NCBI GenBank assembly: GCA_963706285.1
Contig: CAVPLU010000004.1
Span: 96,001 to 160,000 of the forward strand
Reading direction: 5' to 3'
Length of the DNA stretch: 64,000 nt
Source: Candidatus Bathyarchaeota archaeon
Lineage (GTDB): Archaea > Thermoproteota > Bathyarchaeia > 40CM-2-53-6
Below are positions 21,192 to 61,905 of this stretch, piece after piece (within the stretch, counting starts at the first letter, position 1; each line of letters opens with the position of its first letter). The notes beneath the pieces are model-generated. The model saw only the letters and a program-made list of their open reading frames with translations, was not told the origin of the DNA and searched no databases. Position numbers and translations under genes: made by a program.

Positions 21192-21292
21192 GGGCCGGTA
21201 GTCCAGCTCGGTTAAGTGACGCTGCCCTCACACCCACACGTGAACGGTGAGAACGGCAGAGGTCGAGGGTTCAAATCCCTCCCGGCCCACCA
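21192..21292 (+). tRNA. tRNA-Val(CAC) with canonical 37/38 intron (21233-21253, 21 nt) and encoded CCA
   Basis: Acceptor GGGCCGG/CCGGCCC, anticodon stem CTGCC/GGCAG, T arm GAGGG-TTCAAAT-CCCTC; BHB central helix CTCA/TGAG with CA|C and AA|C bulges. Confidence 0.95.
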
Positions 21293-51053: not shown

Positions 51054-53021
51054 ATGTCAGAAAAGATCGGCGTCTACATCTGTCATTGCGGATCAAACAT
51101 CGCTCAGACGGTGGACTGTAAGAGTGTCGTTGAGTACGCTACCGGTCTGCCCAAAGTTGCTGTGGCGCGAGATTATCAATACATGTGCTCTGACCCGGGT
51201 CAGGAGCTTATCAAGAAAGACGTAAAGGAGCTAGGCCTTACGAGGGTCGTGGTTGCCTCCTGCTCGCCTCTAATGCATGAGCCCACTTTTCGCCGTGCGG
51301 TCGAAGAAGCGGGCCTGAATCAGTTTATGTTCCAGATGGCGAACATTCGCGAACAGTGTTCTTGGATCAGCGAGAACAAGGAGATGGCGACCGAACGTGC
51401 GAAGGCAATCGTAGGCGCCGCTGTCAGTCGCGTCTTGTTCCAGGAACCACTCGATGTCAAGAGAGTGCCGGTCAACCCTAATGTCCTGATAGTTGGAGGA
51501 GGAATCACTGGAATCGAGGCCGCACTCCAAATCGCTGACTCAGGGAAGAAGGTCTATCTCGTCGAGAGGGAACCAACGATCGGCGGATACATGGCGCGAT
51601 TCGATAAGACTTTTCCAACCCTCGACTGTGCCGCATGCATCCTCACACCAAAAATGGTGTCTGTCGGTCAGCACCAAAATATCGAGCTTTTGTCATATAG
51701 CGACGTCACTGCGTTCTCCGGATATGTTGGCAACTTCACCGCTCGAGTACGAAGGCGCCCAAAGTATGTTGAAGACGACAAATGCAACGGATGCGGTCTG
51801 TGCACGGAGAAGTGTCCTCTCAGTGTCCCGAGCGAGTTTGATTGTGGACTTGGAAAGCGGAAGGCAATCTACAGGCCGTTTCCGCAAGCCGTACCCAACG
51901 TCCCGGTCATTGATACTGAACACTGCCTATACTTCACGAAGGGCATCTGCAAGGTCTGCCAAAAATTCTGCCCTAGAGGCGCCATAAACTTCGATCAGAA
52001 AGAAACCTTTGTTGACCTGCAAGTGGGAGCTGCGGTTCTGGCAACAGGCTTCGATCTATTCGATGCGTCCAAAGTGAAACAGTTTGGGTATGGTAGGTTA
52101 CCTAACGTCATCACGAGCTTGGAATTCGAGCGACTTTCACACGCGTCCGGTCCAACCGGAGGAAAAATCATGCTCAAGAACGGACAGATGCCCGAGAGCA
52201 TGGCGATTCTACACTGCATAGGAAGCCGCGATACGAACTATAATGAGTACTGCTCGCGCGTCTGCTGCATGTACTCGATGAAGATTGCACACTTGGCTCA
52301 CGAGAAGACCGGAGCAAGAATATACGAGTTCTACATTGACATAAGAGCATTCGGCAAAGGATACGAAGAGTTCTACAAACGAATGCTCAAAGAGGAGACG
52401 ATTTTCATCCGCGGAAAGGCAGCTGAAGTCACTGATGTCGCCCAAACTCCGAGCGAGAGAGGCAAGCTTGTCGTGGTCGCCGAAGATACACTGCTGGGAG
52501 CCGTCCGAAGGATACCTGTCGACATGGTTGTCCTCAGCGTGGGTCTGGAGCCTAGAAAGGACACCGCAGAAGTTGCCAGGACATTCTCGATAAGCAGAAG
52601 TCAGGACGGATTCTTCCTAGAACGTCATCCCAAGCTCGCACCTGTATCAACCGCATCAGATGGCATTTTCATCGCGGGCGCGTGTCAAAGCCCCAAAGAC
52701 ATACCCGACAGCGTGGCCCAAGGCGCTGCGGCAGCAGCCAACGCGCTATCCCTGATCGACAGAAAAGAGGTCACACTTGAACCAACGGTCGCCTTCATAG
52801 ATGAGGAGTCATGCTCAGGGTGCAAGATCTGCATCGGCCTGTGTCCATACAACGCGATAACTTTCGATGAAACAAAGAAGGTATCTCTGGTGAATGACGC
52901 GCTCTGCAAAGGATGCGGTACCTGCGTCGCCGCGTGCCCGTCTGGAGCGATATTGCAGCGCAACTTCACTGATCAGCAACTCCTTGCCGAAGTGGAAGCG
53001 ATCTGCGCCTCAAAACGGTGA
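51054..53021 (+). CDS. hdrA: Heterodisulfide reductase subunit A
   Basis: GVYICHCG, NIREQCSW, DKTFPTLDC, CSRVCC, C-terminal ferredoxin. Confidence 0.94.
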   Translation: MSEKIGVYICHCGSNIAQTVDCKSVVEYATGLPKVAVARDYQYMCSDPGQELIKKDVKELGLTRVVVASCSPLMHEPTFRRAVEEAGLNQFMFQMANIREQCSWISENKEMATERAKAIVGAAVSRVLFQEPLDVKRVPVNPNVLIVGGGITGIEAALQIADSGKKVYLVEREPTIGGYMARFDKTFPTLDCAACILTPKMVSVGQHQNIELLSYSDVTAFSGYVGNFTARVRRRPKYVEDDKCNGCGLCTEKCPLSVPSEFDCGLGKRKAIYRPFPQAVPNVPVIDTEHCLYFTKGICKVCQKFCPRGAINFDQKETFVDLQVGAAVLATGFDLFDASKVKQFGYGRLPNVITSLEFERLSHASGPTGGKIMLKNGQMPESMAILHCIGSRDTNYNEYCSRVCCMYSMKIAHLAHEKTGARIYEFYIDIRAFGKGYEEFYKRMLKEETIFIRGKAAEVTDVAQTPSERGKLVVVAEDTLLGAVRRIPVDMVVLSVGLEPRKDTAEVARTFSISRSQDGFFLERHPKLAPVSTASDGIFIAGACQSPKDIPDSVAQGAAAAANALSLIDRKEVTLEPTVAFIDEESCSGCKICIGLCPYNAITFDETKKVSLVNDALCKGCGTCVAACPSGAILQRNFTDQQLLAEVEAICASKR

Positions 53022-56467: not shown

Positions 56468-57040
56468 CTATGCTTTGACAACGATCGTTTTTGCGAGCAT
56501 GTCGCCTAAGCGTTGTCTCTTATCTGTGGCTGCTATCAAGATGATTCCGAGTAGATATAGGAACGGTAGATGGTCGACTATTCTGAGAATGTTCCTGACC
56601 AGAGCGGAACCGAGATCGCATCTTGAACCATCTTCCTTGACCACTCTGATGTGAATGAGTCTCTTGCCTAATGTCTGACCAGAGGTACCCTCGAAGTAAG
56701 TGAAGTAGATTAACCAGAGGATCCACATGACTCCCACTATTCCAAGAATTCCGCCGACCCAGGCCGGCCCGAACGTTCCCGTCATTCTAGCTCCGGTCAT
56801 AACCCACGGTACGAGCAAGAAGATGGACAGTATCCCTGCCACAATGCCGATTATGATGTAGTCTATGATTCCTGCAACTATCCGCGATCCCAGGTCACTC
56901 AAAGGGCTGGGCGGATTGTATCCTGAAGGTGTAGGTGCAGATGGCGTGGATGACGCTCCAATTTCTAGTGTTGTGCCACAGTTCGTGCAGAATTTAGCAT
57001 CACTTCGAACTTCCCTACCGCATTTTGGACAGTATGGCAT
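56468..57040 (-). CDS. RDD-family membrane protein with N-terminal zinc ribbon
   Basis: CPKCG..FCTNCG; RIVAGIID, GQTLGK, QRLGD. Confidence 0.88.
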   Translation of the reverse strand: MPYCPKCGREVRSDAKFCTNCGTTLEIGASSTPSAPTPSGYNPPSPLSDLGSRIVAGIIDYIIIGIVAGILSIFLLVPWVMTGARMTGTFGPAWVGGILGIVGVMWILWLIYFTYFEGTSGQTLGKRLIHIRVVKEDGSRCDLGSALVRNILRIVDHLPFLYLLGIILIAATDKRQRLGDMLAKTIVVKA

Positions 57041-59271: not shown

Positions 59272-59380
59272 TGGTGGACCGGGCGGGATTTGAACCCGCG
59301 ACCTTCCGCACATTGGAACTGGAGTTTGCCAAGCGGACGATCTTCGGCCCTCGAGGCATACCAGACTGATCTACCGGCCC
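59272..59380 (-). tRNA. tRNA-Ala(GGC) with two introns (D-loop ~21/22, 59343-59357; 37/38, 59311-59326)
   Basis: Acceptor GGGCCGG/CCGGTCC with the G3:U70 Ala identity pair; D stem GATC/GATC; anticodon stem TCCGC/GCGGA; T arm GCGGG-TTCAAAT-CCCGC; encoded CCA. Confidence 0.92.
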
Positions 59381-59572
59381 ACGATAATCGCCTAACATCA
59401 ACGATGTACGACCAATCATCATTTGAAGGGTCGTCCGTCTATGCGTCAGCGACGTGTGAGTTGGGTCTGGCCTCGTTAAATGGATTTTGGAAGCCCGAGA
59501 TTATCAGGGAGATTGAGTGATTGGGAAAGTCTTAATTGAAAGCCGAAAGGCCTACAGTCCCATCCCAGCTGT

Positions 59573-59736
59573 GCCGAGGTAGAACCTTCGGGTTCCTTGA
59601 CAGCTCAGCCTGGGAGAGCACCCGATGCCTGTGAGCAGGTGAGGCTGAAGACCGGGCTGACGGCCAGACGGCTGGCCCAATCGAGTGTTCAAAACCGTCG
59701 GGCCAACCGACGGGGAAAATCACTCCCTCGGCACCA
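59573..59736 (+). tRNA. tRNA-Phe(GAA) with four non-canonical introns (8/9, 30/31, 46/47, 59/60)
   Basis: Removing 59581-59601, 59625-59643, 59660-59680 and 59694-59719 leaves a fully paired 77-nt cloverleaf ending in ACCA; each insert forms a BHB/BHL motif. Confidence 0.92.
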
Positions 59737-61252: not shown

Positions 61253-61905
61253 TTGTCAAAGCGTTCTCGGTTTGCGCGACTTTGGGATTGGTTTGTAAGC
61301 AGAACCAGAATTGAACCGTTCATCACAAGCCACGTTCCCACGACATGCACTCAGCCCCATATACTGCCTCGGCGGAACAACCTTCCTCCTCTTCGTCGTA
61401 CTCGCGGTTACGGGCGTACTTCTCTCGATGTACTATGTCCCGTCACCCAGTGATGCATTCGACAGCATGATGACAATTACAAAGACAGTGCCCTATGGCT
61501 GGCTAGTCAGGAGCGTTCACTTCTACAGCGCGAACGGAATGCTGATTCTTGCAGTTCTACACATGCTGAGAGTCTACTACACGGGCTCGTACAAGGCTCC
61601 GCGTGAGCTGAACTGGGTTGCAGGCGTCAGCTTGGGTCTGCTGACGCTTGTTCGCTGGATACACGGGATACACGCTCCGGTGGGATCAGGTAGCAGTTGG
61701 TGCCTCAGGGATCGGCAAGGGAATAGCAACATCGATTCCCTATCTCGGGCCGCTATTCGGAAAGATGCTCTGGGGTAGAGGGCCGAGCGATACGCTATCA
61801 CGCTACGCAGGCAGCCATATGCTCCTCATACCTGGCGTAATGATCATCGTCATGGCGATCCACTTCTGGATGGTGAAGAGGCATGGAATCTCAGGCCCAC
61901 TCTGA
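61253..61905 (+). CDS. Cytochrome b6-like subunit (two frameshifts)
   Basis: YCLGG, GWLVRSVH..AN..LH, PRELNW, TGYTLRWDQ, SH...IH, HGISGPL end. Confidence 0.88.

Follow-up and report, generated by a model that had tools for sequence, protein, structure and literature searches.

A leader element accompanying introns next to the acceptor stem in bathyarchaeal tRNA genes and its possible role in splicing

The 64,000-nucleotide stretch of a Candidatus Bathyarchaeota archaeon genome analyzed here (contig CAVPLU010000004.1, positions 96,001 to 160,000; hereafter the window) carries on its forward strand, at window positions 59573–59736, a tRNA-Phe(GAA) gene that our hand parse of the sequence divides into five exons and four bulge-helix-bulge (BHB) introns. 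The first of these introns separates U8 from A9, and the gene is preceded by a short leader, TCCCAGCTGT (59563–59572), that pairs with the D-arm. The pairing is conserved within the genus from which the window derives and, throughout the order, introns at this and nearby positions in several tRNAs are linked to a leader element, which elsewhere is a copy of the 5′ acceptor strand of the same tRNA. That the leader in the window clamps intron 1 and thereby aids its splicing, as a variant whose partner has switched from the 3′ acceptor strand to the D-arm, is in our judgment the most plausible reading, with odds that are roughly even.

Intron 1 of tRNA-Phe and its leader

The splice motif of intron 1 draws on exon 1 (G1–U8, GCCGAGGT, 59573–59580), the intron itself (21 nt, 59581–59601) and the beginning of exon 2 (A9–G30, 59602–59624). 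The central helix has the 4 bp of a BHB motif and consists of C3–G6 paired with CTTG in the 3′ part of the intron (59596–59599; C3:G, G4·U, A5:U and G6:C). In the hand parse a 3-nt bulge carrying a cut site flanks it on each strand (G7 U8|A and A C|A9); in the best fold from RNAfold, the first of these is displaced by one base, to U8 A G. The intron side is closed by the hairpin GAACC/GGTTC and the exon side by C2:G10 and G1:C11 only, and both the position of the intron and the shortness of the exon-side helix are as described in an earlier, sequence-only reading of this DNA. The leader, in which positions −10 to −4 are a remodeled copy of the 5′ acceptor strand and −3 to −1 a spacer, pairs with C13–A21 and extends the exon-side helix by nine pairs to 11 bp in total, with one T·T mismatch and one bulged C; the segment of exon 2 that faces G1C2 and the leader together is G10–A21 (59603–59615).

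The same reading had proposed this 11-bp helix and its comparison by folding with and without the leader. The helix was reproduced exactly in the minimum-energy fold of 59563–59620 (−24.7 kcal/mol, z = −2.08, with 5 of 200 shuffles as good), and the motif appeared in the best fold only with the leader: the fold without it (−13.5 kcal/mol, z = +0.45) has no splice motif. The duplex between the leader plus G1C2 and G10–A21 has an energy of −15.9 kcal/mol, a value reached by 0.24% of 20,000 random 10-mers of the genome and by 0.2% of 20,000 shuffles of the leader. Among variants with three substitutions it is reached by 3.0% for GCCGAGGTGT and 0.4% for GCCGAGGAAC, and this comparison is the fairer, and the weaker, one because the leader descends from a copy of the acceptor strand.

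To place the leader in context, the 5′ part of tRNA-Phe was sought by pattern in 105 genomes of the order, found in 76, and its flanks were tabulated. The 8/9 intron is present in 28 of the 76 genes, representing nine genera, and all 28 have a leader element at −7 to −13 before G1. The sequence-only reading did not count 8/9 among the reported archaeal intron sites. Within the order it is common (28 tRNA-Phe and 21 tRNA-Cys genes), although it is absent from the archaeal intron sites given in the available text of PMC4090602 (3/4, 20/21, 22/23, 25/26, 29/30, 30/31, 45/46, 53/54, 56/57 and 59/60). In each of the 22 intron-bearing genes outside the genus, the element is within one mismatch of GCCGAGG, the 5′ acceptor strand of the gene itself. 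Of the 48 genes that lack the intron, 27 retain the copy by the same threshold and 21 have two to four mismatches; the three to four mismatches seen in 18 of the intronless genes are at the level of an unrelated 18-nt stretch. Outside the order, the arrangement of copy plus gene occurs in 2 of 296 genomes of the class, both with the intron.

Every genus represented among the intron-bearing tRNA-Phe genes has one strong partner for the leader. In all genera other than the source genus, pairing with the 3′ acceptor strand amounts to −12.8 to −16.0 kcal/mol and pairing with the D-arm to −4.7 to −8.1 kcal/mol; in the source genus the corresponding values are −5.7 and −15.6 kcal/mol. Complementarity to the D-arm, proposed earlier as a rule for orthologues with the 8/9 intron, thus holds in the six genus genes, and elsewhere the partner is the 3′ acceptor strand. 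The TCCCAGC of the window differs from GCCGAGG at three positions and forms four of seven pairs with CCTCGGC, too few for it to be a spare acceptor strand by identity. By position it corresponds to one: it occupies −10 to −4, lies at the predicted transcript start, accompanies an intron whose motif consumes the acceptor strand, and has the standard spacing from the upstream box. Because the distance from this box to G1 (~42 nt) is identical in the window and in a sister genus, TCCCAGC is the positional counterpart of GCCGAGG. Two of the differences, G4 to C and G1 to T, each break a pairing with CCTCGGC and create one with CCTGGGA.

Within the genus, the 8/9 intron and a D-arm-complementary leader are kept in all six tRNA-Phe orthologues found; the other four of the ten genus genomes (88–95% complete) gave no tRNA-Phe match, which is not evidence of absence. 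The leader is TCCCAGCTGT in three genes and TCCCAGGTGT, TCCCAGGTAT and GCCCAGGTGT in one each, with duplexes of −14.9 to −15.9 kcal/mol, and the 7-mer corresponding to the copy is TCCCAGC in three genomes, TCCCAGG in two and GCCCAGG in one. The G/C change at −4 shifts the bulge from C17 to G15 and alters nothing else. Mean identity is 0.87 in the leader, 0.66 between the box and the leader, and 0.34 in the trailer; pairing between leader and trailer was rejected on account of this lack of trailer conservation.

Other explanations of the copy were considered. A link to the D-loop intron was rejected, as genera of family f2 have that intron without the copy and several genes of genus g4 show the reverse. 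The copy also does not qualify as the true 5′ exon: by hand check, position 8 would then be A, G or C in most lineages, and no intron-side helix would form. Pairing with the 3′ part of the intron is unlikely to be its main role because copy positions 1–2, which such pairing does not need, are conserved, and position 7 varies (G, A, C or T).

A separate observation comes from a Bathyarchaeota record (L047, 5588–5627), where GCCGAGGTAG, a 10-nt copy, then TTCC and a spacer rich in A lie ahead of a tRNA-Phe that has no intron. The arrangement resembles an old 5′ exon, with what is left of the 8/9 intron, upstream of a new and complete gene, and offers a lead on the origin of the copy and on intron loss.

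The leader element in other tRNAs and its position relative to the promoter

The association extends beyond tRNA-Phe. A scan of the source genome for acceptor pairs, a T arm and NCCA recognized 32 tRNA genes, by our own reading of the output, of which seven have an intron between 7/8 and ~11/12. The leader 7-mer pairs fully with the 3′ strand of the same gene in five of the seven and at six of seven positions in one more; tRNA-Phe is the seventh. The full copies are GGGCGGG in tRNA-Arg(CCG) (intron at 9/10), GCCGGGG in tRNA-Cys (8/9), GCCGGGA in a type II tRNA (8/9), GGCCCGG before AGCCCGG (10/11) and GGGGCTG before GGGGCCG (7/8). Only one of the 25 other tRNA genes has a leader copy, and tRNAs that share an acceptor strand with the seven and have no early intron have none. 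The single exception (contig C3, reverse strand, 61458–61613 in reverse-complement coordinates) has GCGGCC directly abutting GCGGCCGT, with no spacer, and a D-loop intron only; its copy was perhaps left over after intron loss.

The order-wide comparison gave the same result for two of these tRNAs. Thirty loci were collected for tRNA-Cys (one without an anchor, one spurious) and 30 for tRNA-Arg(CCG) (three without an anchor). A GCCGGG(G/A) copy precedes 21 of 21 tRNA-Cys genes with the 8/9 intron and none of the seven without it, and a copy is likewise present in 14 of 14 tRNA-Arg(CCG) genes with the 9/10 intron and in none of the 13 intronless ones. The latter (genus g4; L144–L157 and L161) differ in this respect from many intronless tRNA-Phe genes. 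The tRNA-Arg pattern would be accounted for if the intron, the spacer and one repeat were lost together in one step and the copy took over as 5′ strand.

The position of the element was compared with that of the putative promoter. The TATA-like box noted in the sequence-only reading is present at 59530–59539 (TCTTAATTGA) and is kept as GTCTTAATT in the six genus orthologues; we infer its promoter function. The first T of its TTAAT (59532) lies ~41–42 nt upstream of G1 and 31 nt upstream of the leader element, and in 11 ordinary tRNA genes of the source genome the box lies 30–34 nt before G1. This spacing places the predicted transcription start near 59561–59563, at 59562 by our annotation (a purine, A here and G in three orthologues), so that the whole 10-nt leader element would be transcribed, as had been suggested.

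In five genes the copy begins 29–35 nt after the box, which is where G1 lies in the 11 ordinary genes. Together with the U at −1, invariant in the six genus genes, this placement is what might be expected if the leader were kept for transcription initiation or RNase P recognition and not for splicing. We nevertheless regard that explanation as very improbable. A preference for a particular start needs no match to the acceptor strand of the same gene, and such a match is seen in tRNA-Phe, tRNA-Cys, tRNA-Arg and at least three more tRNAs. Furthermore, the element is absent from all intronless tRNA-Cys and tRNA-Arg genes, for which a promoter and RNase P are no less necessary, and the source genus changed from a G-start to a T-start while retaining the gene.

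The same placement, exactly at the expected original G1 relative to the promoter, would also fit a scar of intron arrival, in which an inserted new 5′ end plus intron displaced the old 5′ end, leaving a copy with no present role in any lineage. The 10-nt copy and apparent intron remains in L047 fit such a history, as do a 20-nt copy of the 5′ part upstream of another tRNA of the source genome (described below) and a published model, in the available text of PMC3293823, in which the gain of an intron by way of a mobile element is accompanied by displacement of a 5′ tRNA fragment. A scar should decay, however, and the copies are 0.99 (tRNA-Cys) and 0.93 (tRNA-Arg) identical, as against 0.24–0.64 for the spacers and 0.41 and 0.38, respectively, for the 12 nt upstream; in tRNA-Phe, decay of the copy is seen only where the intron is gone. 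We therefore consider a functionless scar improbable. Origin and present function are compatible, and displacement by a mobile element may account for how the copies arose.

Several other interrupted tRNA genes of the source genome deserve mention. The tRNA bearing the 20-nt copy (acceptor strand plus the start of the D-arm) is a heavily interrupted gene of 264 nt with a 7/8 intron (contig C3, reverse strand, 51061–51324 in reverse-complement coordinates). Its D-arm, GTCTAGAC, is palindromic, and in the fold the copy is therefore paired with the genuine D-arm as well, giving a second helix between a leader and a D-arm. A tRNA on contig C13 (forward strand, 56558–56728) has an intron at 3/4, a position for which acceptor-stem introns are described in Thermoproteales (PMC4090602, in the text available). 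In our hand parse its central helix consists of three leader bases (GGT) and G1, so that the motif could not be built without the leader; this helix was not recovered when the 5′ part was folded with RNAfold. Finally, a multi-intron tRNA with the acceptor strand CCCGCGG lies at the end of contig C1 (reverse strand, 1–230), where the CCA is cut off, and was missed by the scan.

Folding of the precursor, a proposed mechanism and the alternatives

The effect of the leader on folding depends on how much of the transcript is present. In folds of the nascent 5′ domain of the six genus genes, the probability of the central helix is 0.85–0.97 with the native leader, compared with 0.02–0.33 without a leader and 0.12–0.29 with shuffled leaders; of 100 shuffles, 0–7% do as well as the native leader. 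When the window gene was folded at increasing lengths, the motif belonged to the best fold for 11 of the 12 lengths in the range 50–160 nt, with the nine leader pairs at 60–90 and 130–160 nt (eight at 70 nt), and was lost at 170 nt and at full length, once the 3′ acceptor strand was present. Since the motif drops out of the best fold once this strand is made, the leader, if it works, acts on the growing transcript, and intron 1 would be removed first.

The standard copy of the other genera behaves differently in these models. In nascent RNA it clearly helps in only 3 of 22 genes and often competes for the 3′ part of the intron. In full-length precursors, the copy and the 3′ strand form a helix in the best folds of 17 of the 20 tRNA-Phe precursors from other genera (two of the 28 intron-bearing genes have no 3′ end on their contig), 18 of 19 tRNA-Cys and 5 of 14 tRNA-Arg precursors, and none of the 17 tRNA-Phe folds has a normal acceptor stem. 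The canonical central helix is found in 11 of the 20 tRNA-Phe folds, all among the 17, and in none of the 19 tRNA-Cys or 14 tRNA-Arg folds; it is rarely returned because RNAfold prefers a shifted register. Reversing the copy in the tRNA-Cys folds did not restore the acceptor stem. The modeled folds thus give the standard copy mixed support.

We propose the following mechanism. As the motif of intron 1 uses C3–G6, the acceptor stem would be impossible while the motif is formed, and the 8-nt 5′ exon would then be tied to the tRNA body by two exon pairs only. With the standard element, the 3′ acceptor strand, left without a partner, would pair instead with the copied 5′ strand at the predicted transcription start. 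This stand-in acceptor helix would hold the tRNA body together and prevent the 8-nt exon from detaching for as long as the genuine 5′ strand is engaged in the motif; once the intron is out, that strand would reclaim its place, and RNase P cleavage would follow. We favor a stand-in helix because the 3′ acceptor strand is the only universal complement of the copy. In the source genus, substitutions at copy positions 1, 4 and 7 (G to T, G to C and G to C) would have moved the partner to the D-stem and D-loop, where the ~11-nt leader would lengthen the exon-side helix from 2 to 11 bp and clamp the short 5′ exon to the 3′ exon. This clamp would most likely act on the growing transcript, ahead of synthesis of the 3′ acceptor strand. 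Cleavage and ligation at intron 1 would come ahead of leader removal by RNase P, since any splicing role of the leader requires splicing to precede RNase P trimming. The source genome encodes RNase P RNA (183.7 bits), so that the leader can be removed later; the same finding rules out an organism without RNase P, in which the endonuclease would trim the leader.

A number of findings weigh against a splicing role for the leader in the window. The best fold of the full-length precursor has the acceptor stem in all six genus genes, and forcing the motif costs 1.6–8.9 kcal/mol. For the window gene the cost is 8.9 kcal/mol, compared with 8.0 ± 1.9 for shuffled leaders, 70.5% of 200 shuffles being as good. 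Thermodynamic predictions, made at 37 °C, are of limited value for judging the structure that the enzyme encounters. Two Watson-Crick pairs suffice for the outer helix of a BHB motif by the definition in the available text of PMC7714728 and of a recent preprint (10.64898/2026.10.13.758758). The two exon pairs of intron 1 already satisfy this definition, and the leader hence lengthens the motif rather than completing it in the way that the sequence-only reading had claimed. The source genome also has two reading frames with an EndA domain (PF01974), of 200 and 181 aa; the domains lie on contigs C12 (149004–149243) and C6 (75200–75433). Two EndA-type genes have been linked to a form of the enzyme with broad specificity (PMC5829648, in the text available), and the pair found here suggests a heterotetrameric enzyme that would tolerate relaxed motifs. 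In one gene of another genus, the intron is kept with a weakened copy, GCCCAGG, and the motif folds without the leader (P 0.95), so that a strong leader partner may not be essential for an 8/9 intron. One genus gene, that with TCCCAGGTAT, has an A·C mismatch at −2 opposite C13. The covariation check proposed earlier yielded pairing in six of six genus genes and no compensatory change: the D-arm is invariant, only one-sided changes in the leader are readable, and two-sided covariation between leader and D-arm was not found. The start that would bring the leader into the transcript is predicted from box spacing. Judged by sequence and position, moreover, the leader is a diverged copy of the order-wide element, which as a rule pairs with the 3′ acceptor strand and not with the D-arm. 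The 3′ acceptor CCTCGG and the D-loop CCTGGG differ at a single base, so that an acceptor copy already has −11.3 kcal/mol against the D-arm, and the complementarity is partly inherited.

These last points are the core of the main alternative, that the leader of the genus is a decayed relic: a former acceptor copy adrift, whose fit to the D-arm is a by-product without effect on splicing, with the broad-specificity endonuclease cutting on the strength of the two exon pairs. In favor of this view, the ancestral copy already pairs with the D-arm, the observed value is attained by 3% of three-substitution variants, and the full-length fold shows no advantage of the leader. Decay of the copy does occur, as seen in 21 of the 48 intronless genes, and GCCCAGG is found also in intronless genes of another genus (three genomes). 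Yet in none of the 22 intron-bearing genes outside the genus was the copy allowed to decay, and its loss in this genus alone would need a special reason. In addition, all three derived substitutions strengthen pairing with the D-arm, the leader is far better conserved in the genus than the trailer, and the effect in nascent RNA is large in all six genes. We consider the relic somewhat unlikely.

The earlier proposal of a built-in splicing guide thus draws support from the pairing, its conservation and the nascent folds, and finds none in the full-length fold or in the origin of the leader as an acceptor copy. In terms of function, the leader very probably belongs to a class of splicing helpers, here as a derived form with a changed partner. 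As a tentative generalization, which we hold to be rather less than an even chance, introns next to the acceptor stem would survive only with a leader tether in cis, for which two interchangeable designs would exist, a stand-in strand acting on the finished transcript and a D-arm clamp acting on the growing one.

The tRNA-Phe gene, its neighborhood and relation to known systems

The four introns of the window gene are 21, 19, 21 and 26 nt long and lie at 8/9, 30/31, 46/47 and 59/60. Downstream of exon 2, the hand parse gives intron 2 (59625–59643), in which C25–C28 pair with intron GGTG, and intron 3 (59660–59680), in which G41–C44 pair with intron GCCC. Intron 4 (59694–59719, hand-parsed likewise) interrupts the T loop. 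From the parse and the joining of exons, exon 3 comprises G31–G46 with the anticodon GAA (59644–59659) and exon 4 comprises U47–A59 (59681–59693). Exon 5 (U60–A76, 59720–59736) contains the 3′ acceptor strand CCTCGGC (59725–59731), A73 and an encoded CCA. The parse is supported because orthologues without one or another intron show the joined sequence: the variable loop is CTGTC or CTGCC in those without intron 3, and the T loop is TTCAAAT in those without intron 4. The joined exons measure 77 nt (length determined by script) and, by hand parse, contain U8, A14, G18G19, GAA, TTCAAAT, A73 and CCA. RNAfold of the spliced RNA returned the full 7-bp acceptor stem and the T arm, and did not return the standard D and anticodon arms. 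The gene thus falls into the archaeal BHB (hBHBh′) intron class, in that removal of the introns gives a canonical tRNA and the endonuclease is encoded; splicing itself is predicted. A split tRNA with a BHB formed by leader and trailer was ruled out, as the exons follow one another in sequence on a single strand, span 164 nt in all and share one upstream box resembling a promoter. Of four runs of RNA reads, one, of uncertain kind, gave a single unspliced contig of 151 nt over 59571–59721, and the other three gave none.

No second tRNA-Phe gene was found in the source genome (89% complete). Standard tools did not recognize the gene: ARAGORN reported no tRNA anywhere in the window, though at least three tRNA genes are present, and a search of the whole window with Rfam at the gathering score returned only a tRNA at 21192–21289. 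A second intron-bearing tRNA gene of 106 nt with the acceptor strand GGGCCGG lies upstream in divergent orientation (59275–59380, reverse strand); it was missed by both of these window-wide searches and scored 49.1 bits with Rfam in the search of its own genome. In two tRNA-Phe orthologues (L023 of genome G019 and L113 of genome G072), there are five introns, at 8/9, in the D-loop, and at 30/31, 46/47 and 59/60.

Up to three introns per tRNA gene are described in PMC4033280 and PMC8450103 and up to five in Asgard archaea in the preprint cited above, as far as the available texts go, the second figure being equaled by the two orthologues just mentioned, and we accordingly rejected the notion that more than three introns in a tRNA gene would be new. 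The window gene resembles the Asgard multi-intron tRNAs in having many introns and in being of a kind that standard annotation often misses. It differs from them in that it belongs to a different phylum, and no leader is mentioned in the available text on the Asgard genes.

With the non-canonical BHB introns of other archaea, intron 1 shares splicing by protein, a 4-bp helix between two 3-nt bulges, a location outside the anticodon loop and the occurrence of several introns per gene. In contrast to these introns, as covered by the available text of PMC4090602, which mentions no conserved leader element and does not list 8/9, nine extra pairs are here added to a motif that is formally complete. 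That sequence next to the gene may contribute to such motifs has been recognized: tRNAscan-SE 2.0 adds 60 nt of flank since motifs of introns near the 5′ end draw on flanking sequence (PMC8450103, in the available part). A further parallel is provided by the split and permuted tRNAs of Nanoarchaeum, Caldivirga and Cyanidioschyzon, in which leader and trailer pair to build the BHB (PMC4090602 and PMC4033280, in the text available). There, as here, sequence outside the mature tRNA pairs so as to present the motif and hold the exons for ligation. In split and permuted tRNAs, however, the joining is between two transcripts or between permuted ends, and the intron side is what the extra sequence supplies, whereas here splicing would be in cis and the leader pairs with an exon and would later be removed by RNase P. 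Our literature search, which did not extend to primary intron-site lists and supplements, turned up neither a leader that copies the acceptor strand nor one that clamps the D-arm.

The splicing of introns whose cut signal competes with the tRNA fold is largely unstudied, as is the persistence of introns at certain sites. A conserved leader element that accompanies every surveyed acceptor-adjacent intron offers a testable answer to both, and also a guide to tRNA genes overlooked by standard tools. A switch of partner with the intron kept separates holding the 5′ exon to the tRNA body from covering the 3′ strand as the function of the leader. If true, the switch would be direct evidence that tethering, and not a particular helix, is what is selected, and it would fix the order of processing as predicted here, with splicing ahead of the 5′ trimming by RNase P.

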